Assembly (NCBI GenBank): GCA_947590905.1
Contig: CANQCU010000003.1
Coordinates: 18,968 to 82,967, forward strand
DNA length: 64,000 nt
Direction: 5' to 3'
DNA from: an uncultured Clostridia bacterium
Lineage (GTDB): Bacteria; Bacillota; Clostridia; TANB77; CAG-508
Made by a program: the position numbers and the translations under genes. The notes beneath the pieces are model-generated. The model was not told where the DNA came from, did not search any database, and saw only the letters and a list, made by a program, of their open reading frames with translations. Each line of letters opens with the position of its first letter. The stretch's first letter is position 1. Positions 9,268 to 39,074 of the stretch are shown here, one piece after another.

Positions 9268-9471
9268 ATGAAAGAGGAAATAAAAGTATTGCAACTTGAT
9301 AAATACGAAATAGGTATTTTAATCAATGCTTTAAATGAGTTTAGAAATAAACTTATACAAGAGCAAAGAAATACTGAATGCGTAGATGAAGTTTTATTAA
9401 AAGCAATAGACGCCCCATCTAAAAAAAAAATTCTAACAAGGTGTATGAGGAGAGATGAAATCGGATATTGA
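9268..9471 (+). CDS. hypothetical small protein
   Basis: ORF with RBS ggaggaactatatg. Overlaps the T4CP start. Confidence 0.2.
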   Translation: MKEEIKVLQLDKYEIGILINALNEFRNKLIQEQRNTECVDEVLLKAIDAPSKKKILTRCMRRDEIGY

Positions 9472-14278: not shown

Positions 14279-14656
14279 TTGGAAGTAAAAATAAATAGAG
14301 AAATAAGAAACTATACTGAAAGTATATTTTTTGGACTGTCTTTAAGGCAGTTCATTTTTTCTATACTCGCTTGTGGAGTTGCAGTTTTACTTTATTTTTT
14401 ATTAAAAGATAAGTTTGGAATTGAAACATTATCTTGGGTATGTATTTTAGGTGCTGCACCTTTTGCTGCCATAGGTTTTATTACTTATAACGGTATGAGT
14501 GCAGAACAATTTATTTATGCCTGGATCAAATCAGAGTTTCTAATTCCTAAACATTTAACTTTTAAACCTACAAATTTTTATTATGAATTATTAAAAGATA
14601 AATTAGAAAAGGAGGAGAATAATGAAAACATTGAGAACATTGTTCAAACAAGATAA
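14279..14656 (+). CDS. VirB3/PrgI-like small membrane protein (Tn916 Orf17-like)
   Basis: About 125 aa, two TM helices, immediately upstream of and overlapping the VirB4 gene. Confidence 0.45.
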   Translation: MEVKINREIRNYTESIFFGLSLRQFIFSILACGVAVLLYFLLKDKFGIETLSWVCILGAAPFAAIGFITYNGMSAEQFIYAWIKSEFLIPKHLTFKPTNFYYELLKDKLEKEENNENIENIVQTR

Positions 14657-22969: not shown

Positions 22970-25900
22970 ATGGATGATTTAAAGAAAATATATGCAAAAG
23001 ATATTGAAAGAGAAATACAAGGAGTTATTAAAGTTGATGATGAAAGTTATATCAGTCAAGAATTAGAAGAATATGTAGTTACAGAAGAATTATTAAAACA
23101 TTTTAATAGTTTCTTTGACGCATATAATGCAGGTATAAATGGAAATACTGAAAAAATGGGAGTATGGATTTCTGGTTTCTTCGGTAGTGGTAAATCTCAC
23201 TTTTTAAAAATCATATCTTATTTATTAGAAAATAAAGTAGTTAATGGTAAGGCAGCAGTTGATTATTTTGATGACAAAATAGAAGATAAAATGCTACTTG
23301 CAGATATAAAAAGAGCAGGAAGTATTCCAACAGATGTAATCTTATTTAATATTGATTCTAAAACAGAAAATAGTAATGGAACAAAAGATAGAATACTTGA
23401 TGTTTTTGAAAAAGTATTTAATGAAAAAATGGGATTATCTATTACACCATTTGTTGCAGAAATTGAAAGACATATTATTAGTCAAGGTAAGTATGAAGAA
23501 TTTAAAAAAGCATTTGAAAGTAAAGCAAATAACTCTTGGGAAGAAATGCGTGATGGTATTCAATTTGTAGAAGATGAATTTGCAAGTGCTTATGCCGAAG
23601 TATTAGGTAAATCAGAAGAAGAAGCAAGAAATATTGTTGAAAGAACAGAAAAAAATTATACTTTATCAGTAGAAAAATTAGCAGAAAGAATAAGAGATTA
23701 CATTAAATCAAAAGGAAATAATCATCATATTGTATTCCTAGTAGATGAAATAGGACAATACATTGGAGATGATAGAAGTTTAATGTTAAATCTTCAAACA
23801 ATAGTAGAAGATTTAGGACTTGAATGTGGTGGAAAGGCTTGGGTAATCGTTACAAGTCAAGAAGCAATAGATGATGTCGTAAAAGTACAAGGAAATGACT
23901 TTTCTAAAATTCAAGGAAGATTTGATACTAAACTTTCTTTATCAAGTTCTGATATAGATGAAGTAATTAAGAAAAGAATATTAGACAAAACAGAAGAAGC
24001 AACTACAAGTTTAAAAATGATTTATGAAAAAGAAGAATCTATTATTAGAAACTTATTAACATTTAAGAATGCAACATATCAAAAAGTATATGAAGATAGT
24101 ACAGATTTTGCAGAAACATATCCATTTATTCCTTATCAATTTAAGTTATTACAAGATGTATTTACTGATATAAGAAAACACGGTTATGCAGGAAAACACT
24201 TATCAAGTGGAGAAAGATCACTACTAGGAGCATTCCAAGAAACTGCCAAAAGATTTGGAGATAGTGAAATAGGTACAATTATACCTTTCTATGCTTTCTA
24301 CGATACTATTGAACAATTCCTAGAACATCAAGTAAAAATAGTTATTAAAACTGCTATGGATACAGTTCAAAGTGGAGAATTAAAAGATATAGATGTAGAA
24401 GTATTAAAAATGTTATTTATGCTAAAAAACATTAAAGAAATACCTGCTAATATTGATAATCTATCTACTTTATATGTATCTAATATAAAAGATGACAAGA
24501 TTTCTATTAAAAAGGAAATAGCAGATTCTTTAAGAAGATTAGAGGCACAAACTTTAATTCAAAGAAACAATGATGAATATAAATTTTTAACTGATGAAGA
24601 ACAAGAAATAAATAGAGAAATAAAACAAATATTTATTGACCAAAATAGAAAAATTGATTATTTAAAAAGAATTGTTTTTGATTATATACTTACAGATAAT
24701 AAGTTTACTTATAAGAATAAACAATTCCCACTTACTAAATACATAGATAATATTAAATATTCACAAGAATATGAAATAGGTATTAGAGTAGTCACTTCAT
24801 CTCCTGAACAAGATGACACAGAAATCATTATGCAATCTGCAAGAGAAAATAAATATGTATTTGTTAAACTTGAAATATCTACTTTAATCTATGATGAAAT
24901 AACTAATTATTTACAAGTAGAAGAATATAGAAGAAGTAAAAGTGGAGTATTCCAAACACAACAAGTTGAAGATATTATAAGAGCAAAACAAAGAGAAATA
25001 GAAAAAGCAGAAGATATAATTAGAGAAAATATTAAAGAACAATTAAATGAAGCAGAAATTATTATTGCAGGAGATAGACAAAATATAAGTGCAAAAGAAG
25101 CAAAAGCAAGAGTAAATGAAGCATTAGAAATTCTAATCAATAACATATATACAAAATTCACATACATCAAACATAACTTTACTACACAAGACATTAGAGA
25201 GTTATTCCACGAAAATAGACAAAATATGTTAGGAAATGAAGTTGAATTTGTTAATCAAAAGGCTTATGACGCAATGAAAGAATATTGTGAAGAAAAAAAT
25301 GCTTTCAGTCTTCCTATGACAATTAGAACACTTTTACAAGACTTTGGAAATGCTCCTTACGGATTTTTAGATGAAGATATTTTATATATCTTAACTAGAT
25401 TATTAAAAGATGAAGTTGTATCTTTAATTTATAATAATGAAGTACAAAATATTACTTCCGAAGATACACTAACTAAAATATTAAAAAGAGATTATTATGA
25501 TAGAACAATAATAAAAATTAGACAAAAAATAGAGATAAACTTAATCAATGATTTAAAAGCCGTTGCAAGAAATGCTTTCAATGTAATCAATTTAAGAGAT
25601 GATGAAGATGGAATGGTTGAAGATTTTAAAGCAGAGTGTCTTCAAAGTACATTAAATAAATTAAATAAAATAGCAGGATACTATAATATTTCTGGAAGCA
25701 AATATCAATATCCTGGACAAGATGTAAAAGATGAAGCAACTAATTTAATGGAGAGATTATTAAAAATTAGAGATGTTGGAGAATTCTTTAAAGAAGTATC
25801 AAACTGTAAAGGAGTATTGGAAGAATTATCTCCAAAAATAGAAATGGTATTAGATTTCTTTGATGGAACACAAAAAGAACAATTTGATGAAGCCAGAAAA

Positions 25901-26497
25901 ATAATTATTATTTATGATAATAATAAGGACTACGCTGATAGAACAGAAGAACTTTCAAATGTAGTTGATAAAATTGTTTCTATATTAACATCTAGTGAGC
26001 CATATAGTGAAATACACGAACTACCAACATTAAGAAAAGACTTAATTGATTTACTTACACAAATGTATGATGTTAAATCAGAGCCAATTATTAAGATGAT
26101 AAATAATACTATTGAATATATTGAAAACGAAGTAAAACAAGCAGAAGTAGATGAAAACTTTGGAAAGAGATATATTGATACTTGCAAAAATGTTATTGAT
26201 ACATTAGAGCGTTCAAATGAATTAAAAGATATATTTGCACAACAAACTAGAATAGATCAATTAAAAGATAGTTTTATTACTGCATTAGAATATGAAAAGA
26301 GTAAGAAAAATGCTACTAACGAAGTAGGAGAAGTAATAGAAGAAAAAATTGTTAAGAGAACTATTATTAGAACTGATAGTTTAATGAATCGTACCTATGA
26401 AATAAATTCAAAAGAAGATATAGATAAATATGTAGAGGAGTTAAGAACTAAACTATTAAAAGAGTTTGAAAAGAATAATAACTTAACAATTAGATAG
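22970..26497 (+). CDS. brxC: BREX ATPase BrxC/PglY
   Basis: 1175 aa. Walker A motif GFFGSGKSHFLK near the N-terminus, as in BrxC. Large alpha-helical C-terminus. Confidence 0.8.
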   Translation: MDDLKKIYAKDIEREIQGVIKVDDESYISQELEEYVVTEELLKHFNSFFDAYNAGINGNTEKMGVWISGFFGSGKSHFLKIISYLLENKVVNGKAAVDYFDDKIEDKMLLADIKRAGSIPTDVILFNIDSKTENSNGTKDRILDVFEKVFNEKMGLSITPFVAEIERHIISQGKYEEFKKAFESKANNSWEEMRDGIQFVEDEFASAYAEVLGKSEEEARNIVERTEKNYTLSVEKLAERIRDYIKSKGNNHHIVFLVDEIGQYIGDDRSLMLNLQTIVEDLGLECGGKAWVIVTSQEAIDDVVKVQGNDFSKIQGRFDTKLSLSSSDIDEVIKKRILDKTEEATTSLKMIYEKEESIIRNLLTFKNATYQKVYEDSTDFAETYPFIPYQFKLLQDVFTDIRKHGYAGKHLSSGERSLLGAFQETAKRFGDSEIGTIIPFYAFYDTIEQFLEHQVKIVIKTAMDTVQSGELKDIDVEVLKMLFMLKNIKEIPANIDNLSTLYVSNIKDDKISIKKEIADSLRRLEAQTLIQRNNDEYKFLTDEEQEINREIKQIFIDQNRKIDYLKRIVFDYILTDNKFTYKNKQFPLTKYIDNIKYSQEYEIGIRVVTSSPEQDDTEIIMQSARENKYVFVKLEISTLIYDEITNYLQVEEYRRSKSGVFQTQQVEDIIRAKQREIEKAEDIIRENIKEQLNEAEIIIAGDRQNISAKEAKARVNEALEILINNIYTKFTYIKHNFTTQDIRELFHENRQNMLGNEVEFVNQKAYDAMKEYCEEKNAFSLPMTIRTLLQDFGNAPYGFLDEDILYILTRLLKDEVVSLIYNNEVQNITSEDTLTKILKRDYYDRTIIKIRQKIEINLINDLKAVARNAFNVINLRDDEDGMVEDFKAECLQSTLNKLNKIAGYYNISGSKYQYPGQDVKDEATNLMERLLKIRDVGEFFKEVSNCKGVLEELSPKIEMVLDFFDGTQKEQFDEARKIIIIYDNNKDYADRTEELSNVVDKIVSILTSSEPYSEIHELPTLRKDLIDLLTQMYDVKSEPIIKMINNTIEYIENEVKQAEVDENFGKRYIDTCKNVIDTLERSNELKDIFAQQTRIDQLKDSFITALEYEKSKKNATNEVGEVIEEKIVKRTIIRTDSLMNRTYEINSKEDIDKYVEELRTKLLKEFEKNNNLTIR

Positions 26498-26514
26498 TAA
26501 AAGGAGATAAGCAG

Positions 26515-27168
26515 ATGAATAAAAAAGAAAAATTACAAAAATTGATAGAAAAAGGAAAAGAGTTTATAGGGAAGAATTTAACACACAATGATTCACATTT
26601 TTGTGCTTGGAATGCCTCTGTAATTAGGTTTATTGAAAATGAATTTGGAGTTAATTCAACAGATGCAAAGCGATTAAAAGGAAGACTTTATCAACCATCT
26701 GCTTATGCACCTGGGGCAGATAATCAAAGTTTATTTGTAAAATATTTTGAAAGAGATTTAAGTAAAACATTAGAAGAATTAGAAATGATTTTTGATGATA
26801 TAGAAGAAAATAATTTTCAAGGAGAAAAGAATTTTCAAGAAGAAAAGAAAAATATTGGAGGAACAACAATTAATTTTAACATTGATAACAGCAATACGAA
26901 TACAAATACTACAAACATCAATATTTCATTTGAAAAATTAAAAGGAGATATTGAGAATGATTCATCTATTGTAAATGAGGATAAAATAGAAATATTAAAT
27001 AAATTAGATGAAATTAAAAATATACAATTAAGCAACATTCCTAAAAAGGAAAAGTGGATAACAATAAAGAAAATACTTATATTTTTACTAGATAAAGGAG
27101 TAGATTTTGCTATTGCATATTTACCACAAATATTATTACTACTTAAAATGGGAGGTATAAATGGATAA
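26515..27168 (+). CDS. uncharacterised 217-aa protein embedded in the BREX operon between brxC and pglX, with a C-terminal hydrophobic helix
   Basis: RBS aaggagataagcagatg. Its stop overlaps the pglX start (translational coupling). Asn/Thr-rich low-complexity middle. No recognised domain. Confidence 0.4.
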   Translation: MNKKEKLQKLIEKGKEFIGKNLTHNDSHFCAWNASVIRFIENEFGVNSTDAKRLKGRLYQPSAYAPGADNQSLFVKYFERDLSKTLEELEMIFDDIEENNFQGEKNFQEEKKNIGGTTINFNIDNSNTNTNTTNINISFEKLKGDIENDSSIVNEDKIEILNKLDEIKNIQLSNIPKKEKWITIKKILIFLLDKGVDFAIAYLPQILLLLKMGGING

Positions 27169-30100
27169 AACAGTATTAAAAAAATTTGCTATTGAATCAA
27201 GACAAGATTTAATGGAAAAAATTAAAAACAAAATAAAAACTTTCTATGTTGATGAAGTGTTTTCAAATGAACAAAAAGGTGAATTATATGTTTTATCTAA
27301 CGAAAAACACACATTAAGTCTAACAAATGAAGAATATAAGAAAAGAGAACTTTTAATTAAGAGAATAAAAGAATTATCATTAGAACAAGTAATAGAGGAA
27401 GCAGCGTATACTTGGTTTAATAGAATTGTTGCCATTCGTTATATGGAAATAAACGATATTCTTCCTTTAACAAAAGAAAATCAATCACTAGGAATAAGAG
27501 TATTATCATCAAAAGATAATACTCCCGATCCAGAAATATTAAAGTTTACTAATCTAACTAATCCAGATTTAGATATTGACTTTAAAAAAGAAATATATTC
27601 AGAATTAAAAGATGAAAATGATAAGTTTAAATATGTTTTATTATTAGTTTGCAAAAAATTAGGAAAAGTTATTCCACAAGTATTTGATGGTATAACTGAT
27701 TATATTGATATTTTAATTCCAGACAATTTACTTAATGATACTGGATTTATAACGAAAGTTATAAAAGATGTTCCAGAAGATAATTATAATCAGGTAGAAA
27801 TTATAGGATGGTTATATCAATATTATAATCAAATAGAAAAAGATAGAGTTATAACTTCTAAAAAGGCATATAAGAAAACAGAAATTCCTTATGCTACTCA
27901 ATTATTTACGCCAGACTGGATTGTAAAGTATATGGTTGAAAATTCGTTAGGAAGATATTGGATAGAACATAATGGAGAGAGGACATTATATCCAAGTAAT
28001 AATCTACATCAATCTTCTTCAATTATGGAAAATTGGGAACATTTTATAAAAGAGAATATAGAATACCAAGATAACAAATTAGATCCAACTAAAATTACTT
28101 TTATTGATCCTTGTTGTGGAAGTGGGCATATTTTAGTTTATGCTTTTGAAATATTTTATCAAATTTATTTAAAATCAGGGTATAACAAAAATGATATACC
28201 AGAGTTAATATTAAAAAATAATTTATATGGGTTGGATATTGATGATAGAGCAGGACAATTATCTATATTATCAGTATTATTAAAAGCAAGAGAATATGAT
28301 AAATATATATTTAATAAAGAAATTGTAAAAAAATTAAACATTATAAGCATACAAGAATCTAATACAATAAATCCAGAAATTTTAAATAATTTGAATGATA
28401 TAAATATGAAAGAAGACGCTAAAAAATTACTTGAAACTTTTAGTAATGCAAAAGAAATAGGCTCTTTAATTGTACCAAGTTGTTTAGATTACGAAAAATT
28501 AGAACAAGAAATATATAAAGATGATACAATTTTTGGAATTGAGTTAAAAGATAAATTATTGCCTTTAATTAAGATAAATAAAATATTATCAACATCATAC
28601 GATATAGTAGTTACTAATCCACCATATATGGGCGAAAGGTATATGAGCCAAAACTTAAAAACTTTTATTAAAAAATATTATGAAGTAGGAAAAAACGATT
28701 TATTTTCTGCATTCATTTTAAGAATTATAGACTTCTGTAAAAAAGATGGCTTTTCAGGAATTATATCACCTTATGTTTGGTTTTTTATAAAAAGTTATAT
28801 AGATTTACGAAAAAAGGTTTTGCAAGAAATGACTTTTAAATCTTGTATTCAATTAGAATACAATGCCTTTGAAGTAGCGTGTGTTCCAGTTGCAACTTAT
28901 ATATTGAAGAAAAGCCATTCTATTGAAAAGGGAATCTATATAAAGTTATCAGATTTTAAAGGTGCTGATAATCAGGAGCCAAAATTTTTAGAAGCAATAC
29001 ATAATCAAGAGTGTAGTTATAAATATGTAAGGAATACAGATATATTTGAAAAAATACCAAATAATACTTTTGCTTATTGGATTGGAAATAATATGCTTGA
29101 AGTGTATGCAAAGTCATTGCCATTATCTAATTATGCTACTGCTTGTGTAGGATTACAAACAAGTGATAACAAAAGATTTTTGAGAGAATGGTATGAAGTT
29201 GATATAGAAAAAATTGGCTTTAATATTAAAAATATTGAAGAATCTATTAAAACTCATAATAAGTGGTTCCCTTATAACAAAGGTGGAGGATTTAGAAGAT
29301 GGTATGGTAATGTTTTAGAAGTAGTAAATTGGGAAAATGATGGTTTTGAAATAAGAAAATATAATGAATATTTAAATTCTTCAAGAAATTCTAATATTGG
29401 TATTGCAAATACTAAATATTACTTTAAAGAAAGTGGAACTTGGGGGCTTATTAGTTCAGCAGATTTTTCAGTAAGATATTCACCAGTAGGATATATATTT
29501 GATACAGCAGGATCATCTATTTTTAGCGAAGAAAATTTAAAATACTATATAGGATTATTAAATACTTCACTTGTAAAAGAATTGCTTTTAATTCAAAACC
29601 CAACTTTAAATTTTACACCTGGAAATGTTGCAAATTTGCCAGTAATTCTTCCTGAGGTAGAAATAAAAGATTGCATAGAGAAAATTGTTGATAAAAACAT
29701 AGAAATTTCAAAACAAGACTGGGATTCTTTTGAAACAAGTTGGGATTTTGTTAAGCACCCATTATTATTGGAGGCAAATTTAACACCTAAACAAATTCAA
29801 AAAGAAGAATCTAATGGATTTCAAGTATGTAATAACTTAGAAGAAGCATATAATCATTGGACTATAAGTTGTAATAATAGATTTAAGCAACTTAAAGAAA
29901 ATGAAGAAGAATTAAATCGCATTTTTATAGATATATATGGTTTGCAAAATGAATTAACACCAGAAGTAGAAGACAAAGATATAACTATAAGATTAGCAGA
30001 TAAGGAAAGAGATATAAAATCATTTATCAGTTATGCAGTTGGTTGTATGTTTGGTAGATATTCGTTAGATGAAGATGGACTAATTTATGCAGGTGGAGAT

Positions 30101-30721
30101 TTTGACATAAATAGATATAAATTATTTAAAGCAGATGTAGATAATGTTATTCCAATAACTGATCAAGCATACTTTGGTGATGACATTGTAGAGAGATTTA
30201 AAGATTTTTTAAGAGTTGCTTATGGAATGAATACTTTTAATGAGAATCTTGACTTTATTGCAGAAGCGTTAGGTAAGAAAGGTACAGAAACAAGTGAAGA
30301 CACTATAAGAAGATATTTCTTAAATGACTTTTATAATGACCATATTAAAACATATCAAAAACGACCTATATACTGGTTGTTTGATAGTGGCAAGAAAAAT
30401 GGATTTAAAGCACTTGTTTATATGCACAGATACAATGAAAATTTAGTACCAAAAGTAAGATTAGATTATTTACATAGAGTGCAAACAACTTATGAAAAAT
30501 TATTATCAGATGTTAATTATAGACTAACAACTGATTTATCAATGACAGATAAAAAAATAGCAGAAAATAGAAAAGCAGACTTAAATGCTAAACTACAAGA
30601 AATAAAAGAGTATGATGAAAAGATAGCACATATTGCTAATCAAAGAATTAGTATAGATTTAGATGATGGTGTTAAAGAAAATTATGAGAAGTTTAAAGAT
30701 ATACTAGCGAAAATAAAATAG
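27161..30721 (+). CDS. pglX: BREX N6-adenine DNA methyltransferase PglX
   Basis: 1186 aa. Catalytic NPPY motif (VVTNPPYMGERYM), with the SAM-binding region upstream of it. Position after brxC. Confidence 0.85.
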   Translation: MDKTVLKKFAIESRQDLMEKIKNKIKTFYVDEVFSNEQKGELYVLSNEKHTLSLTNEEYKKRELLIKRIKELSLEQVIEEAAYTWFNRIVAIRYMEINDILPLTKENQSLGIRVLSSKDNTPDPEILKFTNLTNPDLDIDFKKEIYSELKDENDKFKYVLLLVCKKLGKVIPQVFDGITDYIDILIPDNLLNDTGFITKVIKDVPEDNYNQVEIIGWLYQYYNQIEKDRVITSKKAYKKTEIPYATQLFTPDWIVKYMVENSLGRYWIEHNGERTLYPSNNLHQSSSIMENWEHFIKENIEYQDNKLDPTKITFIDPCCGSGHILVYAFEIFYQIYLKSGYNKNDIPELILKNNLYGLDIDDRAGQLSILSVLLKAREYDKYIFNKEIVKKLNIISIQESNTINPEILNNLNDINMKEDAKKLLETFSNAKEIGSLIVPSCLDYEKLEQEIYKDDTIFGIELKDKLLPLIKINKILSTSYDIVVTNPPYMGERYMSQNLKTFIKKYYEVGKNDLFSAFILRIIDFCKKDGFSGIISPYVWFFIKSYIDLRKKVLQEMTFKSCIQLEYNAFEVACVPVATYILKKSHSIEKGIYIKLSDFKGADNQEPKFLEAIHNQECSYKYVRNTDIFEKIPNNTFAYWIGNNMLEVYAKSLPLSNYATACVGLQTSDNKRFLREWYEVDIEKIGFNIKNIEESIKTHNKWFPYNKGGGFRRWYGNVLEVVNWENDGFEIRKYNEYLNSSRNSNIGIANTKYYFKESGTWGLISSADFSVRYSPVGYIFDTAGSSIFSEENLKYYIGLLNTSLVKELLLIQNPTLNFTPGNVANLPVILPEVEIKDCIEKIVDKNIEISKQDWDSFETSWDFVKHPLLLEANLTPKQIQKEESNGFQVCNNLEEAYNHWTISCNNRFKQLKENEEELNRIFIDIYGLQNELTPEVEDKDITIRLADKERDIKSFISYAVGCMFGRYSLDEDGLIYAGGDFDINRYKLFKADVDNVIPITDQAYFGDDIVERFKDFLRVAYGMNTFNENLDFIAEALGKKGTETSEDTIRRYFLNDFYNDHIKTYQKRPIYWLFDSGKKNGFKALVYMHRYNENLVPKVRLDYLHRVQTTYEKLLSDVNYRLTTDLSMTDKKIAENRKADLNAKLQEIKEYDEKIAHIANQRISIDLDDGVKENYEKFKDILAKIK

Positions 30722-30732
30722 GAGGATAGATT

Positions 30733-33276
30733 ATGTTTGATGAAGTATTACAACTATTAAATGATACTTTAAATGGTGCTTTTTCAAGAGATACAGAAAG
30801 AAAAAGAACTAGAAAAATTATATTCTGGTATGATTCTAAACAAGAATATCTTGATTTTATCAATGAACTAGAATTAGACAATACAGAAATATTAAAGTAT
30901 GATAACAATAGTTTTTGGATTAGATACCATATAGAAAAAGAAGAACTTAATAAGAATATTATTATCTATCTTCCTTTTGAAAGAAAAAAAGGTATAGATA
31001 ATGACTTATTAGATTTAGAAACTGCAAATAGTGATTTATTGTTTAATCCAGATTCAACAACAATGAGATTAAAGAATTTAGGTTTAACAGATGATGAAAG
31101 AAATATAATTAAAAAATATTCAAAATTCTTTGGAAATAAGAAAAGAGAAACGGAATTTAAAAACTTTGATATTGATGAAAAGAATGCAAATAATATAGAT
31201 TTAATTATTACAGCAATAATGCTTAATATTAAGTCTATCAATGAAGATGATATTTTAAAGGAAATTATTAGATTTTATTTTGAAGATGAGAAAAAGTATG
31301 AAGAATTATTTAAGTATGGAAGCGAAGAATTTATATTAGAATTGTTTAATAATACTTTTGGATCAGATGTAAAATCTTATAAAGATTTGCCAGAAATATA
31401 TAAATCATTAGTATTTACTTATTTCGCAACAAGTTTAAAAGAGCCAAAGAAAGCAAGTAGATATAGTAAATATATACTAACTAAAAAAACTACTAATATA
31501 TATGTTTTCTTAAATAATTTAATGAGAGATAAGACAATGAAATCTTATTTTGAACACTTATCAAAAGAAATAGAAAAAGAATTTGGAATAAATGAATTAT
31601 TACAATCAATGGATATAGATGATTACATTTCAAGTGACGCTTTTGAAAGCATAGATAGATGTGTAATAAAATACATTGTTGATAAATTATTTAATGGAAT
31701 AGGAGAATATGATTTATATTCTAATTATATTGATACAAGAGAAAGTAAATATTGGTTTGATAAATTAGAAAACGAGTATAACTTATTAAAAGTTTCAATA
31801 ACATTCTTTGAAAAGATTAAAGAAATAGAAGACAAAATAAAAATAGAAGATATTGATTTATTTGCTAAAAATTATACAGAAATATTTAGCGAGATAGATA
31901 CATTATATAGAAAAGTTTACTTTTACTATGACAGTATAGAAGACAAAGATATATTTATCAATTTAAAGAACAAAATAGAGAATATCTATGTTAATGACTT
32001 TATGAGCGAATTATCTATTAAATGGAGTGATACGATAGAAAATATGAATAAATATGATTCTAATCGTATGACATTACAAAAAGATTTTTACAAAAATTAT
32101 ATTAAGCCATTTAACGATAAGAAAGATAGAATTATTGTTATAATTTCAGACGCTTTTAGATATGAATGTGCAAAAGAATTAAATAATAGACTAAAAGTAT
32201 TTGCTAGTAAATCCGATATAAAATATATGCAAGGACTTGTTCCATCATATACTAAACTTGGTATGGCAGCATTACTACCAAATAAGGAATTAGAAAGAGT
32301 TAAAGATAGTGATGATATTTTAGTTGATGGACAACCTTCTGCCAGTCTTAATGATAGAGAGTTAATATTACAAAAAGAGAATCCAGATTCTATTGCTATA
32401 AAGTATGATGACTTATATGAAATGACTAAACTTGAATGGAAAAAAGTTTTTTCTGGTAAAAAGATAGTTTATATTTATCACGATACCATAGATAATGCAG
32501 GAGAACATAACGAGAATACAATATTCACTGCTTGTGATAAAGCAATAAATGAATTAGAAAAGTTAATAAAAGATTTACATACTACTTTTAGTGGAATAAA
32601 TGCTTTTATAACTGCCGATCACGGATTCTTTTATAAAAGAGGAAAAGTAGAAAGCTATGAAAAAACAAGTAAGACTACAAATGCTACAAAACAAAAAACT
32701 AGATATTCTTATTCAGATAGTATTTCAAATGATGAGGGAATTTTATCTATCAATCTTGATTATGTATTTGGTAGTAATAGTGGGTATGTAAATATTCCAA
32801 AAGGTAATATTATATTTGCTAGACAAGGAACAGGAATAAATTATGTTCACGGTGGCATACTTCCACAAGAAATAATTGTTCCAGTTATAGACTTTAAATC
32901 AACAAGAACAAGTGATGATAGTAAAAAGGTTGGTATTACTTATAGTGGACTTACTGCTAAAATTACAAATGCTATTACTTATTTAGAGTTTTTACAAGAT
33001 AATAACATAGATGAAAATAACAAGCCTTGTAGATACCTATTACATTTTGAAGATGAAGATGGAAATAGAGTTTCTGATGAATGTACTATTATAGCCAATT
33101 ATGAAAATACAGAAGTAAAAGATAGATTCTTTAAAGAAAAGTTTGTATTTAAAAATATTGAATATGATAGAACAAAACCTTATTATTTAGTAATTATAGA
33201 TGAAGAAACTGGTATAGAAGCAAATAGAGTCAAATTCTATATTGATATTGCCATTGTAAATAATTTTGATTTTTAG
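30733..33276 (+). CDS. pglZ: BREX alkaline-phosphatase-superfamily protein PglZ
   Basis: 847 aa. PglZ-domain signature (IVIISDAFRYECAKEL). Position after pglX. Confidence 0.75.
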   Translation: MFDEVLQLLNDTLNGAFSRDTERKRTRKIIFWYDSKQEYLDFINELELDNTEILKYDNNSFWIRYHIEKEELNKNIIIYLPFERKKGIDNDLLDLETANSDLLFNPDSTTMRLKNLGLTDDERNIIKKYSKFFGNKKRETEFKNFDIDEKNANNIDLIITAIMLNIKSINEDDILKEIIRFYFEDEKKYEELFKYGSEEFILELFNNTFGSDVKSYKDLPEIYKSLVFTYFATSLKEPKKASRYSKYILTKKTTNIYVFLNNLMRDKTMKSYFEHLSKEIEKEFGINELLQSMDIDDYISSDAFESIDRCVIKYIVDKLFNGIGEYDLYSNYIDTRESKYWFDKLENEYNLLKVSITFFEKIKEIEDKIKIEDIDLFAKNYTEIFSEIDTLYRKVYFYYDSIEDKDIFINLKNKIENIYVNDFMSELSIKWSDTIENMNKYDSNRMTLQKDFYKNYIKPFNDKKDRIIVIISDAFRYECAKELNNRLKVFASKSDIKYMQGLVPSYTKLGMAALLPNKELERVKDSDDILVDGQPSASLNDRELILQKENPDSIAIKYDDLYEMTKLEWKKVFSGKKIVYIYHDTIDNAGEHNENTIFTACDKAINELEKLIKDLHTTFSGINAFITADHGFFYKRGKVESYEKTSKTTNATKQKTRYSYSDSISNDEGILSINLDYVFGSNSGYVNIPKGNIIFARQGTGINYVHGGILPQEIIVPVIDFKSTRTSDDSKKVGITYSGLTAKITNAITYLEFLQDNNIDENNKPCRYLLHFEDEDGNRVSDECTIIANYENTEVKDRFFKEKFVFKNIEYDRTKPYYLVIIDEETGIEANRVKFYIDIAIVNNFDF

Positions 33277-33287
33277 GAGGTGCAGTA

Positions 33288-35318
33288 ATGGAAGAACTTA
33301 ATGAAAAGTTAAATAAATATTTTGCAGGAAAAGTTGTAAGAAAAGATTTAACTAAAAAAATTAAAGAGGGAGCAAATGTACCTGTCTATGTTCTTGAATA
33401 CTTACTTGGTATGTACTGTGCTACTAATGATGAAAATGCAATTCTTGATGGTGTAGAAACAGTTAAGAAGATATTAGCAGATAACTTTGTAAGACCAGAT
33501 GAAGCAGAAAAAATAAAATCTAAAATAAAAGAAAAAGGTATTTATACAATTATAGATAAAGTAACGGTAAGACTTAATGAGAAATTAGATTTATACCAAG
33601 CAGAGTTTTCTAATTTAGGAATAAAAGACGCTTCTATAAGTGAAGAAATTGTTAATAAATATGAAAAACTTTTAGTTGGTGGTATATGGTGTATTATTAA
33701 AGTTAGTTATAACTATGATGACCAAGATAGACATAAAATGCCTTTTAAAGTAGCAAGTCTTGATCCAATACAACTTCCAAATATGGATTTAACTGGCTTG
33801 TTTGATGGAAGAAAACATTTTACAAAAGAAGAATGGATTGATATTTTAGTTCGTTCTATGGGAATAGAGCCATCAAAACTTACTGAAATACAAAAGTGGC
33901 ATTTTCTTGAAAGAGCAGTACCACTTGTAGAGAATAATTATAATCTATGTGAACTAGGTCCGAGAGGAACTGGTAAGTCACATATCTATAAAGAAATATC
34001 TCCAAATAGTATTTTAGTATCTGGTGGACAAACTACTGTTGCTAATTTGTTCTATAATATGGGACAAAAGAAAATAGGTTTAGTAGGTATGTGGGACTGT
34101 GTTGCTTTTGATGAAGTAGCAGGTATTACATTTAAAGATAAAGATGGAATCCAAATAATGAAAGATTATATGGCTTCTGGATCATTTGCAAGAGGAAAAG
34201 AAGAAAAAAATGCAAATGCTTCTATGGTATTTGTAGGGAATATAAATCAAAGTGTTGAAGTATTATTAAAAACATCACATTTATTTGAGCCATTCCCAAA
34301 AGAGATGGCAAATGATTCTGCTTTCTTTGACAGAATGCACTTTTATCTTCCTGGTTGGGAAATTCCTAAAATGCGACCAGAGTTAATAACAGATGAATAT
34401 GGATTTATTACAGACTATTTATCAGAATATTTTAGAGAAATGAGAAAAAGGACTTTTTCAGATTCACTAGATAAATACTTTAAATTAGGAAATAACTTAA
34501 ATCAAAGAGATGTTATAGCAGTTAGAAAGACAGTTTCTGGTTTAGTTAAATTGTTATATCCAAATGGAGAATATAGTAAAGAAGAACTTGAAGAAATACT
34601 TGCCTATGCTTTGGTAGGAAGAAGACGAGTAAAAGAACAATTAAAGAAAATAGGTGGTATGGAGTTCTATGATGTTCACTTTTCTTATATTGATTTAGAA
34701 AGTATGGAAGAAAAATTTATTTCAGTACCAGAAAATGGTGGTGGAAAACTTATTCCAGAGGGAATGCTTAAAGCAGGGCATACTTACTTTATAGGTAGAG
34801 GAACATCTGGAATGATAGGAACATATAAAATTGAAGTAGAATCTCCAAGTGGACACGGTAAATTTTCAGTTTCTGGCGTAGGTAATGATAGAGAAACAAA
34901 AGAAGCATTAAATACAGCATTTAATTATTTTAGAGCAAACAAAAAAAGTATAAGTGCTAGTATTCAAGTAGATAATGTTGATTATTTACTACATATTGAA
35001 GATTTACAAGGAGTAGGTGCTTCAAAAGATATATCTCTTGCTTCATTTGTTGCAATGTGTAGTAGTGCTTTGAAGAAACCTATACAAGGTAGTTTAGTCA
35101 TATTAGGTAGTATGAGTATAGGTGGAACAATTAGTAAAGTAGAAGAAATAGCCAATACTTTACAAGTATGTTTTGATTCAGGTGCTAAAAAAATATTACT
35201 ACCAATGTCTTCTGCTAGTGATATATCAAGTGTACCTAGTGACTTATTTTCAAAGTTTAACATAGCATTTTATAATGATCCAGAAGACGCAGTATATAAA
35301 GCATTAGGTATAGAATAA
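33288..35318 (+). CDS. brxL: BREX Lon-like protease BrxL
   Basis: 676 aa. Conserved BrxL N-terminus (VVRKDLTKKIKEGANVPVYVLEYLLGMYC). AAA/Lon-like Walker A (GPRGTGKSH). Lon-protease-like C-terminal domain. Confidence 0.75.
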   Translation: MEELNEKLNKYFAGKVVRKDLTKKIKEGANVPVYVLEYLLGMYCATNDENAILDGVETVKKILADNFVRPDEAEKIKSKIKEKGIYTIIDKVTVRLNEKLDLYQAEFSNLGIKDASISEEIVNKYEKLLVGGIWCIIKVSYNYDDQDRHKMPFKVASLDPIQLPNMDLTGLFDGRKHFTKEEWIDILVRSMGIEPSKLTEIQKWHFLERAVPLVENNYNLCELGPRGTGKSHIYKEISPNSILVSGGQTTVANLFYNMGQKKIGLVGMWDCVAFDEVAGITFKDKDGIQIMKDYMASGSFARGKEEKNANASMVFVGNINQSVEVLLKTSHLFEPFPKEMANDSAFFDRMHFYLPGWEIPKMRPELITDEYGFITDYLSEYFREMRKRTFSDSLDKYFKLGNNLNQRDVIAVRKTVSGLVKLLYPNGEYSKEELEEILAYALVGRRRVKEQLKKIGGMEFYDVHFSYIDLESMEEKFISVPENGGGKLIPEGMLKAGHTYFIGRGTSGMIGTYKIEVESPSGHGKFSVSGVGNDRETKEALNTAFNYFRANKKSISASIQVDNVDYLLHIEDLQGVGASKDISLASFVAMCSSALKKPIQGSLVILGSMSIGGTISKVEEIANTLQVCFDSGAKKILLPMSSASDISSVPSDLFSKFNIAFYNDPEDAVYKALGIE

Positions 35319-35732
35319 GTTTTAACAAATAATATGGAGAGGTAATATTGATAAAACTTTAATTATATAATGAAATGAACGCACAAATTGTAAGTATTTG
35401 TGTGTTTTTTTAATTTTTTATATCAGTACAACACAATCCGACATTTTTTTCGCAAACATTGTCGTACAATGTATTTTAGTAACATTGCCTACGGCTATGT
35501 AATTAAAGAATAATAAAGGGGTAGTGATAAGAAATAGAAAGGTTGTGGTGTAGTTTATATTCTATTTCAAATAATACATTACAGGCTTAATTTGTAGTAA
35601 TAGATGATACAAAGTTTTTAGTAGTATTTTGCTTTTGTATTTATAGGCAATGTCTTGTTGGGAGAGATTGTCTATGAGAGTAAGAAAATACTATGTAATT
35701 TGCATAGAAAAATTAAGAATCATTGAACGAGT

Positions 35733-35782
35733 CAAATTCAACTCTATTAGCAGAGGAGGATTTGACTCTTTTTTTTATAGTG
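35733..35782 (+). terminator. intrinsic terminator/attenuator upstream of the sigma-like gene
   Basis: Hairpin GAGTCAAAT ... ATTTGACTC followed by TTTTTTTTAT. Confidence 0.4.
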
Positions 35783-35869
35783 TAAGTAAACATTTAAGTA
35801 ACGGGTGTAGAGGTCCTCCTTTTATCAATTTGTTTTTAAAAAAATTCAAATTGATAGGAGGAAAGAAAG

Positions 35870-36346
35870 ATGGCAGAACGCCCAAAGAGAAGAAAATATA
35901 AGGATAATCCTTATACATTAAGTTATGTTGAAGAAAAAAATATTTATTTAGTAAGTTTTAAAGATGGCAATGGAATAAAACAAGTAATAGAAGTTAATGA
36001 GGAAATCTATAAAATATTTAATTCATTTGAATTACAAGATTTAAAAGAATTAAATGAGTATGATAGACATATAGAACATTCAGAATTATTTGAAAATACT
36101 CTTGAAATGAAAGCAAAGGACAAGCCTATTAGTGTAGAAGACCAAATAATTAAAAAAGCAACTTTTGACGAATTACAAAGAGCAATAAATAGTTTGCCAG
36201 AAACACAAAGAAGAAGAATAAAAAAATATTACTTTGCTGAAAAAAATGAATATGAAATAGCCAAAGAAGAACACACAACGCAACAAGCAGTAAATAAATC
36301 TTTAAGACTTGCAATTCAAAAATTAAAAGAAATTTTAAAAAAATAA
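35870..36346 (+). CDS. sigma-70 region-4-like HTH regulator (Tn916 Orf7-like)
   Basis: The C-terminus QRRRIKKYYFAEKNEYEIAKEEHTTQQAVNKSLRLAIQKLKE has a sigma region 4 HTH pattern. Position before xis-int as in Tn916. Confidence 0.5.
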   Translation: MAERPKRRKYKDNPYTLSYVEEKNIYLVSFKDGNGIKQVIEVNEEIYKIFNSFELQDLKELNEYDRHIEHSELFENTLEMKAKDKPISVEDQIIKKATFDELQRAINSLPETQRRRIKKYYFAEKNEYEIAKEEHTTQQAVNKSLRLAIQKLKEILKK

Positions 36347-36559
36347 AAAAGTAGGGTTGTTATTTTAATTTTAAGTGAGGAAACAAGTGAAAGGGTACAA
36401 AACTCTTTCAACCTGTTTCTTCTTTTTTTGTGGAAGCAGGAGCGTTCTTTGAAAATTTGATATTCATTCATCAAATACTTTCCTGTTAGAGATAGCACAT
36501 TAACAAGTACGCTTGTCGGTAAAATGCTTGGTTATAAAATTAGGTAGCACCTAATTTGC

Positions 36560-36720
36560 GAAGACATCTAATAGTATTAAAGATACTCCTGCCTAGCCAC
36601 AGACTCACGCAATGGGGGCAGCCACGAGAGATCCTCGGGGAGGTGGAATTCCTGTGAGATTGAATAGCAATCAATCGTTTGATGAAATCCTAGGCTGAGG
36701 GTATTGAGAAAAATATCAGT
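36560..36720 (+). ncRNA. candidate structured RNA / cis-regulatory leader (GC-rich, nested complementary segments)
   Basis: Nested pairs GCCTAG(36590)/CTAGGC(36691) and CTCAC/GTGAG, with GC-rich internal hairpins, in an otherwise AT-rich non-coding stretch. An intrinsic terminator follows, then an RBS. Confidence 0.3.
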
Positions 36721-36750
36721 TGACTAAAAAATAAAAATGAAAATAACAAA

Positions 36751-36780
36751 GTCAGAGTATAGATTACTCTGGCTTTTTTA
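36751..36780 (+). terminator. intrinsic terminator directly upstream of the RBS of the small ORF/mazF pair
   Basis: Hairpin CAGAGTA-tagat-TACTCTG followed by GCTTTTTTA. Confidence 0.5.
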
Positions 36781-36800
36781 CATATAAGGAGGATTTTTTA

Positions 36801-37004
36801 ATGAAAAGAAAAAAATATAAAGTTAAAGTTAAATTGATATTTGAAACTACTATGGATCATTCACAAGAAAGTATGGAAAAAGCAGAGCAAGATGTTAAAA
36901 GAGTTCTAAACGATTATTTAAAAGATAAAAAACTTAATATACTTAATCTATTTGAAAATGAGCCACCACGAATAATATGCAAGGCAGAAAAATATGATAG
37001 ATAA
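36801..37004 (+). CDS. small basic protein (67 aa) overlapping the mazF start by 11 nt; candidate non-canonical antitoxin or Tn916 Orf8-like protein
   Basis: RBS AAGGAGG. Stop overlaps the mazF start. No resemblance to MazE/PemI/AbrB-type or RHH antitoxins that I can recognise. Confidence 0.3.
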   Translation: MKRKKYKVKVKLIFETTMDHSQESMEKAEQDVKRVLNDYLKDKKLNILNLFENEPPRIICKAEKYDR

Positions 37005-37401
37005 TTATGATATTAGAAAGGGAAATATTTATTATGCAAATCTTGATCCTGTAATAGGAAGTGAGCAAGATGGAAAAAGACCAGTGGTGGTTGTTCAAAA
37101 CAATGTTGCTAATAAACATAGCCCAACAATTATAATTGCACCAATTACAACAGTAATAAAGAAAATATATCTGCCAACACATATCATTATATATAAAAAT
37201 GCTTTTTTAAAAAAAGATTCAACTATTTTAGTAGAACAAGTTAGAGTAATAGATAAAACAAGATTATTAACTTATTTAGGAAAACTAACAGATGACCAAA
37301 TAAGAAAATTAGATAAGGCTTTAATAAATGCCTTTGATATAAATATTGAAAGAGAGGGAGATAATTGCAACTATTTAAAAGTAAAGATAAAGGATATGTA
37401 G
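36994..37401 (+). CDS. mazF: MazF/PemK/EndoA-family endoribonuclease toxin
   Basis: Strong resemblance to B. subtilis EndoA/NdoA: GNIYYANLDPVIGSEQDGKRPVVVVQNNVANKHSPTIIIAPITT...KTRL. Confidence 0.8.
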   Translation: MIDNYDIRKGNIYYANLDPVIGSEQDGKRPVVVVQNNVANKHSPTIIIAPITTVIKKIYLPTHIIIYKNAFLKKDSTILVEQVRVIDKTRLLTYLGKLTDDQIRKLDKALINAFDINIEREGDNCNYLKVKIKDM

Positions 37402-37568
37402 TGACTATTATTTCAAATAATAACAAGCAAGAAGTACAAGTAAAAGCAAAAAATAAAAATAGTGCAAAAGAAATGGTTATAAATGTGCTTTTAAAATGTG
37501 ATTTGTTTGGAATAAACAGTTTAGATGATATTAAATTAGAATGTAGAAGAATAAGGAGGGAAGTTTAA
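37365..37568 (+). CDS. hypothetical small protein overlapping the mazF 3' end
   Basis: 67-aa ORF. No recognised domain. Confidence 0.25.
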   Translation: MQLFKSKDKGYVVTIISNNNKQEVQVKAKNKNSAKEMVINVLLKCDLFGINSLDDIKLECRRIRREV

Positions 37569-37801
37569 TGGATGAAATGATTTATTCAGTACACGAAGTT
37601 GCTAAAATGTTGCATTCAAGTCCTAACTATGTTTATAAACTAATTGATAATGGATTTCTTCCTGCTATAAAATTAGGTAGTGTTAAAATATTAAAATCTA
37701 CCTTAATAAAGTTTTTAATGGAGAATGAGGGAAAAGACCTTTCTGATATAAATAATATAAAAAAAATAGAAATTAGTTCACTGGTGAAGTCAAATGGCTA
37801 G
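37568..37801 (+). CDS. xis: excisionase-like HTH protein (Xis)
   Basis: 77 aa. HTH (YSVHEVAKMLHSSPNYVYKLIDNG). Immediately upstream of and overlapping the integrase gene. Confidence 0.5.
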   Translation: MDEMIYSVHEVAKMLHSSPNYVYKLIDNGFLPAIKLGSVKILKSTLIKFLMENEGKDLSDINNIKKIEISSLVKSNG

Positions 37802-39074
37802 TGTTGGAATAAAAAAAAGAGGAAAGGTATATCAATATCAATTTGAAATAGCACCTGTTAATGGACAAAGGAAATGGATAACAAAATCTGGATTTAAAAC
37901 AAAGGCAGAAGCAGAGGAAGAAGGTAATAAGGCTTATACAGAATACTTAAATGCAGGAGTGCCTTTTAAAGAATGCAAAACTTCATATACAGATTATTTA
38001 GACTATTGGTTAAATAATTATTGCAAGACAAACTTAAAATACAATACGATACAAGCATATAAAAATATCATAGAAAAACATATAATACCTAAATTAGGTA
38101 AATATAGATTATCTACGATAACAAGTGTAAGGTTAAATTCTTATATTACTGAAATAGTGGAAGAAAATGATTTTGCTCCTGCGTATTTTAAAAATATATT
38201 AAAGGTATTAAAAGGATCATTTCGTGACGCTTGTGATATATATGGTTTTATTAAATATAATCCTGCCAGAGATTTAAGACTACCAAGATTTGATAAAAGG
38301 AGAGAGGATGTAAAACATTTATATACACAAAAAGAAATAGATTTAATATTAAATAAATTTGCAGACAATGACACATTTACTTGTGTCTTTTTAACTTCTT
38401 GCTATACTGGTATGAGAACAGGAGAAGTATGTGCTTTAACTTGGAATGATATTGATTTTGAAAAAGAAACTATAAACATAGAACACAATGTATATGACAA
38501 GCCAAAAGATGATAAAGGTAGATGGTTTATAGGAACTACTAAAACTGAAACAGGAACTAGAAAAATTCATTTAAGTCAAACATTAAAAATTGCATTACAA
38601 AATTATAAAAGAAAACAAGATTATTTAAAGAAAATATATGGTAAAAAATATATATATTATCACATTGAAAATGTTACGAATCAATCTGGTAAAGTTGTAG
38701 AGCATAGAATAGTAAGAGAAGAATTAAGCAATAAAGATTCTGAAAGAATAGATTTGATTTTCACAAAAGAAAATGGTCTTTATCTTGGAACTGATATTAC
38801 AAGAACACCATTTAAAATAATTCATAATGAGTTAGGAATTAAAAAGTGTAGATTTTATGATTTAAGAGGTAGTTATGCAACTAAAATATTAAATAATGGA
38901 GTTGAGATAAGAGATGTTGCTGATTTACTTGGACATAAGAATATAGAAACAACAGAAAACTTCTATATATCAAGTACAGAAAATTCAAGAAAATATGCAA
39001 CAGAAATATTTGATAGTATTTCAAAATCGGAAACTATAAATAAGATTATAGAGTATAAAATTGATTTGGAATAA
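37794..39074 (+). CDS. int: tyrosine site-specific recombinase / integrase
   Basis: 426 aa. C-terminal catalytic region with R...HxxR and LLGHKNIETTENFY (the tyrosine is in FYI). N-terminal SAM-like/arm-binding part. Confidence 0.8.
   Translation: MASVGIKKRGKVYQYQFEIAPVNGQRKWITKSGFKTKAEAEEEGNKAYTEYLNAGVPFKECKTSYTDYLDYWLNNYCKTNLKYNTIQAYKNIIEKHIIPKLGKYRLSTITSVRLNSYITEIVEENDFAPAYFKNILKVLKGSFRDACDIYGFIKYNPARDLRLPRFDKRREDVKHLYTQKEIDLILNKFADNDTFTCVFLTSCYTGMRTGEVCALTWNDIDFEKETINIEHNVYDKPKDDKGRWFIGTTKTETGTRKIHLSQTLKIALQNYKRKQDYLKKIYGKKYIYYHIENVTNQSGKVVEHRIVREELSNKDSERIDLIFTKENGLYLGTDITRTPFKIIHNELGIKKCRFYDLRGSYATKILNNGVEIRDVADLLGHKNIETTENFYISSTENSRKYATEIFDSISKSETINKIIEYKIDLE

Follow-up and report, generated by a model that had tools for sequence, protein, structure and literature searches.

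We analysed 64,000 nucleotides (nt) of a contig from an uncultured Clostridia bacterium (GenBank assembly GCA_947590905.1, contig CANQCU010000003.1; the whole stretch is called the window below), in which a non-coding leader precedes a gene for a PemK/MazF endoribonuclease toxin near the right end of a conjugative element. Nucleotides 36577-36657 of the window are a copy of the already catalogued pemK RNA (Rfam RF02913); the element is real, not new. It forms the core of a leader that runs from approximately 36513 to 36720 (helices P0, P1-P3, P4, and P6) and is longer than the 61-position Rfam model. Its neighbours in related genomes suggest that the RNA goes with the excision genes of the element rather than with the toxin. 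The PemK cassette, which has its own terminator and UACAU pentad, is an optional insert between the leader and the recombinase genes. Beyond the catalogue entry, our purely computational results point to a link with the recombination module, an extended structure, and a candidate UACAU cleavage site.

The leader RNA and the genes it accompanies

The non-coding stretch between an Orf7-like regulator gene and ORF1, the first open reading frame (ORF) of the cassette, is 454 nt long (36347-36800) and includes a GC-rich part (50% GC vs. approximately 25% in the window background). The match to RF02913 (Table 1) covers the full length of the model (positions 1-61), lies above the gathering score of 34.8, and belongs to the only Rfam family reaching threshold in the whole 64-kb window. 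Rfam types this family as cis-regulatory ('Cis-reg'). The RNA is encoded upstream of both genes on the strand of pemK, at a distance of 144 nt from ORF1 and 337 nt from pemK; the terminator lies in between. All sibling and cousin loci retrieved with ORF1 carry an RNA of this family in the same position. The family reportedly represents the presumed 5' untranslated region (UTR) of pemK, often followed by a Rho-independent terminator. It originates from the survey of Weinberg et al. 2017 (PMC5737381), and its structure was revised in Rfam 15 using added covarying pairs (PMC11701678). An initial annotation of the stretch, made from the sequence by itself, had described a structured RNA-like leader here and proposed an Rfam search and a covariation check. 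It had in effect rediscovered a catalogued family: the search returned RF02913, and the secondary structure (Rfam helices and P4) is conserved in 52 homologues.

These homologues derive from a genome scan with one genome per species, in which the core pattern GATACTNC-N22-52-GGNGGTGRAATTCCNNTGA was sought and neighbouring genes were ignored. The scan yielded 92 stretches, nearly all of them in Clostridia, Bacilli, Tissierellia, Desulfitobacteriia or Mollicutes-type genomes; viral contigs gave 8 matches. Across the 52 distinct homologues in the structure alignment, 89.9% of cells paired in the Rfam helices, the P1 extension and P4, compared to 69% in shuffles, and the covariation score was 0.552 vs. 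0.197 in shuffles (0/500 shuffles reached 0.552; slid controls 0.11-0.13). The closing pair was C-G in 33 homologues and U-A in the other 19. In the window the motif comprises a conserved 5' tail, UUAAAGAUACU, the closing pair and helices P1 to P3 listed in Table 1, and a UGA at the 3' end; the invariant unpaired nucleotides of the RNA are GAUACU, GGUGRAAUUCC, and UGA. Shared with RF02913 are the closing pair with three hairpins, the invariant GAUACU, GGUGAAAUUCC, and UGA, and the location upstream of pemK on the same strand with a terminator downstream. It differs from the model by an 18-nt insertion in P1, the long form being the commonest (54/60 distinct cores), by the conserved P0 upstream, and by P4 and P6 downstream. 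It departs from the family description in that a small ORF lies between RNA and pemK, and in that the relatives more often have a recombinase than pemK downstream.

The helices drawn in the initial annotation (GCCTAG/CTAGGC and CTCAC/GTGAG) did not hold up: in the 52 homologues 54.0% of their cells paired vs. 54.5% in shuffles, with no covariation, and they are chance complementarity of one sequence. A small CCU/GGG hairpin (P5) paired in only 60% of cells of the same alignment. A candidate pseudoknot stem (S1, GAAAUCC/GGGUAUU) falls where the insertion shifts the alignment.

Conservation extends past both ends of the Rfam model. In P4 each of the six pairs covaries, and 91% of its cells are paired over 52 loci, rising to 100% in the 20 pemK-type leaders. 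For P4 and P6 together, 100% of cells were paired and 8/11 pairs had changed on both sides among 20 distinct leaders. A competing inner P6 helix (GGUAU/AUAUC) showed no covariation and was rejected. At the position of P0 a hairpin of at least 6 base pairs (bp) was found in 60/61 distinct loci compared to 37.5% of shuffles, with a mean stem of 8.0 bp vs. 5.3 bp. The pairing count of P0 on the MAFFT alignment was weak because the loop lengths differ; conserved boxes flank the hairpin. The promoter-like site at the start of the leader overlaps a conserved box (xxGxCGR, 14-15 nt, ATAAAA) seen upstream of the leader in other loci, and we infer that it acts as a promoter. A terminator-like hairpin with a T-rich tract (36388-36410), just past the stop codon of the sigma-like gene, suggests that the leader has its own promoter and is not reached by read-through from that gene. 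In the subgroup to which the window belongs, the 5' arm of P0, AAUUAGGUA, can instead pair with the upstream UGCUUGGUU (36526-36557, 9 bp including G-U), giving two mutually exclusive hairpins.

Leaders without pemK have a different downstream part, which is also strongly conserved. They share GGGAAGUAGUGUCGAAU and GAAGAACAAGCG, followed by UGAUAUCAGAAACUAUGCrGCGG-loop-CCGCyGCAUCCUUGUGAUAUU, at approximately +25 to +200 past the Rfam motif and outside the Rfam model (loci L013, L019, L025, L028, L036, L066, L073, and others). With P0 and this downstream part included, the conserved RNA may exceed 300 nt in the loci without pemK.

Some single copies deviate from the common layout. A near-identical metagenome copy of the element carries a 28-nt tandem duplication of the P2-P3 part (L002, 3742-3879), and in another such copy a 61-nt deletion removes P4-P6, so that the motif is nearly joined to the spacer and terminator (L003, 3831-3968). 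These two differences could be real variants or assembly artefacts. One locus has a second pemK RNA on the opposite (minus) strand of the contig (L010, 4093-4190, 62.9 bits), beside a serine recombinase gene and approximately 3.7 kb from the first.

To count gene neighbours we used the 66 distinct RNA loci that had 900 nt or more of sequence downstream, and PemK was sought within 3 kb. PemK was present in 24 of these loci and absent from 42. In the 42 PemK-less loci, a small gene comes next after the RNA, with a recombinase gene behind it. The small genes included excisionase-type HTH_17 (8), SHOCT_2 (5), DUF6870 (3), and Tn916-type Xis (2) proteins, and the large downstream ORFs encoded large serine recombinases in 27/39 and tyrosine integrases in 6/39 cases. 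Upstream of the RNA, 49/57 distinct ORFs matched Sigma70_r4_2 and ended 215-320 nt before it. Six of the 57 upstream sigma-region-4 neighbours also touch Pfam Phage_antitermQ (E up to 5e-5), which probably reflects merely a shared helix-turn-helix. The same order of sigma, PemK, hypothetical protein and serine recombinase genes occurs in a C. difficile island (PMC6814731). From the conserved neighbours it follows that the stable unit consists of the sigma-like gene, the leader RNA, and the excision/integration genes.

The PemK cassette

The initial annotation had named the toxin gene as an EndoA-type MazF, and the database matches agree. The PemK_toxin match spans positions 2-108 of the 109-position profile, among proteins of known structure it is closest to S. 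aureus MazF (2mf2, 4mzm) and B. subtilis EndoA (4mdx, 1ne8), with E values of 1e-28 to 1e-30, and the protein is 50% identical to S. aureus MazF over 111 residues. Judged by these matches the toxin is an ordinary EndoA-type MazF. As in EndoA/EndoAI (NdoA/NdoAI) and S. aureus MazEF, whose toxin fold family it shares, a small upstream gene overlaps the toxin gene, and UACAU is depleted in the toxin genes. Unlike in those systems, an antitoxin of the MazE/EndoAI type is missing; instead, two unrelated small basic proteins are encoded on either side of the toxin gene, and the whole lies inside an operon of an integrative and conjugative element (ICE) together with xis and int, behind a structured leader and a terminator.

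Both small proteins are real gene families. ORF1, which overlaps pemK by 11 nt, has 167 homologues with 72-100% identity, and ORF3 has 128 homologues by profile search and a predicted strand-strand-helix-strand fold. Neither family carries a Pfam, NCBIfam or PADLOC annotation. The partners of PemK are two unannotated families, beside an RNA family that is known and functionally uncharacterised. Profile searches of the PDB with ORF1 and ORF3 returned no antitoxin, and no PDB relative at all for ORF1. We found no likeness to MazE, PemI or EndoAI and no AbrB-like/SpoVT or ribbon-helix-helix domain in either protein, in agreement with the initial annotation, which had doubted that the upstream 67-amino-acid (aa) ORF was of the MazE/PemI/EndoAI type. 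ORF1 and ORF3 gave no BLASTP alignment with each other and were rejected as paralogues.

Partners were counted in 33 distinct cassettes. Twenty-three encode both ORF1 and an ORF3-like protein beside pemK, six ORF1 only, and two an ORF3-like protein only (once upstream and once downstream of pemK). One or both are thus found in 31/33 cassettes, and neither family was seen without pemK. This co-occurrence with pemK only marks ORF1 and ORF3 as toxin-specific partners, either of which is able to be the sole one. Median identity to the window copy was 79% for ORF1, 66% for PemK and 52% for ORF3. In two loci of high-GC Clostridia (L016, 3344-3928, and L035, 758-1330) PemK lacks ORF1 and ORF3 and is directly followed by a serine recombinase; these PemK proteins share a conserved N-terminal extension of approximately 36 aa (MPENMRAAALPVQPITLGGCPYPSGIKQIHAKEECE), which might be a fused inhibitor.

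A second 67-aa ORF overlapping the 3' end of the toxin gene had also been noted initially. The ORF stood, with its 128 homologues; the 37-nt overlap did not stand as a designed feature. It comes down to one base in a G-run at 37356-37358, which is GGG in the window and three siblings and GGGG in three other siblings. The four-G allele yields a 123-aa PemK with a TAA immediately before the TTG start codon of ORF3, and the three-G allele yields the 135-aa protein that overlaps ORF3. The overlap is a local accident of the G-run allele. Both alleles occur in several independent assemblies, and the difference could be slippage-prone or merely neutral.

Between the conserved leader and the terminator lies a variable A-rich spacer, placing the terminator 90-125 nt from the motif. 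The intrinsic terminator followed by a ribosome-binding site (RBS), as the initial annotation had it, was recovered as a 12-bp hairpin with a U-run and the AAGGAGG listed in Table 1. Its free energy is -16.0 kcal/mol (z -5.9, RNAfold), and an A-tract precedes the stem. All 20 distinct cassette variants contain a hairpin of 10-16 bp followed by a U-run (mean free energy -14.8, z -5.4); it is kept with compensatory changes, and some stems are wholly replaced, e.g. by GCACGAGAU/AUCUCGUGC. This terminator travels with the cassette and not with the RNA. An antiterminator formed by the 5' tail of the RNA and the 5' arm of the terminator (AUACUC/GAGUAU; 6 bp in the window and 7 bp in L012) was considered and dropped, being absent or weak in L022, L026, L027, and L044. 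An internal promoter with TTGACT at 36721, in the interval between leader and terminator, was likewise rejected: the site is not kept in other loci, and the spacer shows no more than a variable A-rich sequence.

Directly past the U-run and 2-8 nt before the RBS stands a UACAU pentad. It was found at the same place in 31/34 distinct pemK loci, almost always as the sole copy between the RNA and the toxin domain, and in the window it is the only plus-strand UACAU from 36350 to 39074. The 2.27-kb ORF1-int operon contains 0 UACAU where codon shuffles predict approximately 3.6, and 31 distinct pemK genes together contain 4 compared to an expected 16.3 ± 3.6 (0/300 shuffles were as low). In pemK-less leaders UACAU occurs at the background rate (1.08 per kb). 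B. subtilis EndoA recognises UACAU (PMC6562991), and a second report treats this pentad as an S. aureus MazF site as well (PMC7470975). UACAU is the probable cleavage site of the PemK clade found here, and one copy is probably retained on purpose in the cassette's own 5' UTR; placement and depletion together suggest feedback by self-cleavage. A twofold excess of the UACAU complement on the plus strand of the window (133 vs. 71) is explained by GC skew and carries no signal.

Readings of the leader and the cassette

The analysis establishes what the RNA and the toxin are, which helices the leader contains, how the genes are ordered, and that terminator and UACAU are conserved; from these we infer a chain of functional steps in which we place moderate confidence. 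The leader would be a regular component of the module for regulation and recombination in Bacillota integrative elements, situated between the Orf7-like sigma-region-4 gene and the excision/integration genes, and the cassette (A-rich spacer, terminator, UACAU, RBS, ORF1, PemK, and ORF3) would sit between the leader and xis/int. Acting in cis on its own transcript, the leader would set the level of transcription or translation in the operon downstream, and the terminator would limit basal read-through into the toxin gene and xis/int. PemK, of the EndoA type and probably UACAU-specific, would be restrained by one or both of the small proteins that replace MazE, and would cut its own mRNA at the single UACAU before the RBS as a negative feedback. 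Co-transcription of the cassette with xis/int would either stabilise the element (addiction) or arrest the host upon activation of the excision module. The close packing of ORF1, pemK, ORF3, xis, and int, which abut or overlap like the genes of one operon, makes it plausible that the cassette serves addiction in connection with excision.

Several observations weigh against this model of a cis-acting leader with an optional cassette. No conserved antiterminator or alternative pairing linking the RNA to the terminator was found by eye and with simple scripts. With a simple finder, most leaders without pemK showed no canonical terminator, so termination cannot be the sole output of the RNA. Both small proteins lack resemblance to known antitoxins and are basic, not acidic; ORF1 is more conserved than the toxin, which is unusual for an antitoxin, and 2/33 cassettes have neither partner. 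The UACAU specificity of PemK is deduced from 50% identity and from motif depletion, and conservation of the pentad could in part be shared ancestry of the terminator-RBS region. The genome scan used one exact pattern, and the share of pemK-less loci may not hold for the whole family. Finally, our literature search found no published functional test of the pemK RNA and no experiment on it.

A possibility that we entertain tentatively is that the pemK RNA is no toxin leader. A leader core of approximately 200-320 nt would instead couple the Orf7-like regulator to excision and integration in many Bacillota ICEs and mobilisable elements, as an RNA checkpoint (e.g. a processive antiterminator or a signal sensor) that times excision and transfer, and the PemK cassette would be an optional add-on. 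Processive antitermination can also be stated as a mechanism by itself: a leader RNA resembling HK022 put or B. subtilis EAR in its action, a sigma-region-4 protein acting like Q, or both together would make the polymerase terminator-resistant through the cassette, xis/int and, after excision, the transfer genes. The leader does head the recombination module, right after a sigma-region-4 gene in 49/57 loci. Six of these neighbours touch Phage_antitermQ, as does, weakly, the protein encoded in the window (E 0.11), and a strong terminator lies downstream with no competing structure. The established model of Tn916 includes long read-through transcripts, which count in the same direction. The likeness to put and EAR (a long operon that begins with a structured RNA, downstream terminators, and no competing antiterminator helix) is positional only, however: in Rfam there is no sequence or structure match to either family, and the Phage_antitermQ matches are weak. 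The mechanism would fit the layout; we regard it as rather unlikely.

A metabolite-sensing riboswitch, with the RNA as aptamer and the terminator as expression platform through which a small molecule switches the toxin operon, is unlikely. The compact multi-helix fold with invariant unpaired nucleotides and strong covariation would suit it, as would the terminator in all cassette loci and the cis-regulatory type given by Rfam. Yet the terminator is separated from the RNA by the variable spacer with no conserved antiterminator found by eye or with simple scripts, the match between 5' tail and terminator is not kept in other loci, a simple finder showed no canonical terminator in most pemK-less loci, and the recombinases, excisionases and toxin downstream hint at no metabolite. 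Autoregulation by the toxin, in which PemK or a complex of PemK and partner binds or cleaves the structured RNA, would account for the association with pemK that gave the motif its name, and MazF proteins do bind RNA; the invariant single-stranded GAUACU even contains UAC. This reading is very improbable, as GAUACU and the rest of the motif are invariant although 42/66 loci have no pemK, and the sole canonical UACAU is found past the terminator, not within the structured RNA.

The initial annotation had also raised a type III-like system, in which the RNA would be a trans-acting antitoxin of PemK and the terminator would set the RNA:toxin ratio as in ToxIN. The order of structured RNA, terminator and endoribonuclease gene does resemble ToxIN/AbiQ, and there is no MazE-like gene. 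The RNA is, however, single-copy and has no repeat array (Tandem Repeats Finder reported only trivial A-rich repeats in 36300-37600), and the toxin belongs to Pfam PemK and not to ToxN/AbiQ. That the RNA occurs without a toxin in 42/66 loci is a strong argument against an RNA antitoxin, and the two conserved small proteins, which strictly co-occur with pemK, are better antitoxin candidates. The type III reading is close to excluded. The broader claim, that an RNA leader and a terminator precede a MazF with a non-MazE partner, was by contrast borne out by RF02913, the conserved terminator, and the antitoxin searches.

The pemK motif is an orphan RNA that has been catalogued since 2017 with good covariation support and for which we found no published function. 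If it does track the sigma-like regulator and the recombinase module, then excision, transfer and read-through become the relevant outputs, and not the toxin; this would suggest that excision is controlled at the level of RNA in a large set of gut and clinical Bacillota elements with resistance and defence cargo. A MazE-less MazF with two unannotated small-protein families could reveal new antitoxin types or RNA-binding accessories, and the fixed UACAU before the RBS would, if confirmed, be a simple model of toxin self-limitation.

The surrounding element

Table 1. Positions of the leader, the cassette and neighbouring genes within the 64-kb window
Feature	Position	Strand	Basis or remark
Promoter-like site TTGTCG-16-TAAAAT	36513-36540	+	consensus scan
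Hairpin P0, AAAUUAGGU-agc-ACCUAAUUU	36537-36557	+	upstream of Rfam model
pemK RNA motif, Rfam RF02913	36577-36657	+	cmscan 53.4 bits, E 3.7e-8
Closing pair	36588/36654		within pemK RNA
P1	36589-36593/36617-36621		extension 36597-36599/36613-36615
P2	36622-36628/36634-36640		within pemK RNA
P3	36641-36643/36651-36653		within pemK RNA
Hairpin P4, GAUUGA-auagcaa-UCAAUC	36658-36676	+	immediately 3' of Rfam model
Conserved 3' leader GUUUGAUGAAAUCC...CUGAGGGUAUU...AAAUAUCAGU	36677-36720	+	common to pemK-type leaders; contains P6
Helix P6	36694-36698 (GCUGA) with 36716-36720 (UCAGU)	+	
Intrinsic terminator	36748-36779	+	12-bp stem 36748-36759/36765-36776, U-run to 36779; RNAfold
UACAU, candidate PemK self-cleavage site	36779-36783	+	single; between terminator and RBS
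Ribosome-binding site AAGGAGG	36786-36792	+	downstream of terminator
ORF1, 67 aa, small basic protein	36801-37004	+	candidate non-MazE antitoxin/partner
PemK/MazF endoribonuclease toxin, 135 aa	36994-37401	+	Pfam PemK_toxin PF02452, E 4.4e-30
ORF3, 67 aa, TTG start, small basic protein	37365-37568	+	second candidate partner/antitoxin
xis	37568-37801	+	HTH_17/excisionase; Pfam and NCBIfam, sibling-contig gene calls
int, tyrosine integrase	37794-39074	+	Phage_integrase; Pfam and NCBIfam
Orf7-like regulator gene, 158 aa	35870-36346	+	Pfam Sigma70_r4_2 (sigma-70 region 4), E 1.5e-7
MobA/VirD2 relaxase	6255-7607		upstream of RNA
Type IV secretion system (T4SS) coupling protein	9455-11263		upstream of RNA
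VirB4-like ATPase	14622-16955		upstream of RNA
BrxC	22970-26497		
PglX-like methylase	27161-30721		
PglZ	30733-33276		
BrxL	33288-35318		

Downstream of the leader, five tightly packed plus-strand genes (ORF1, pemK, ORF3, xis, and int) occupy 36801-39074. They abut or overlap by their ORF coordinates, and a single operon is plausible; the stop codon of ORF3 overlaps the start of xis as TAATG, and xis/int adjoin the cassette. The insertion of the cassette between the Orf7-like gene and xis, claimed in the initial annotation, is borne out by the Pfam matches and by the gene calls in siblings. The region has the parts of a Tn916-like ICE module: Sigma70_r4_2, HTH_17/excisionase and Phage_integrase proteins, with conjugation genes upstream. 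A sigma-like Orf7 homologue, an excisionase and a tyrosine integrase end the conjugative element as in the module of Tn916 (orf7/orf8, xis, int), and Tn916-type Xis occurs in some RNA-bearing relatives; here the sigma-like gene and xis are separated by a conserved structured leader and a toxin cassette, an apparent difference from that module. A search of a plasmid collection for annotated copies or for Tn916 gave no near or distant DNA match.

The 5' end of the sigma-like gene is overlapped by an 83-aa ORF (35650-35901) for which no family was matched, and an 89-aa gene is called there in a sibling contig. The ICE carries as cargo a complete type 1 BREX set (22970-35318), which immediately precedes the sigma-like gene; the sibling contig L006 has unrelated genes at this position.

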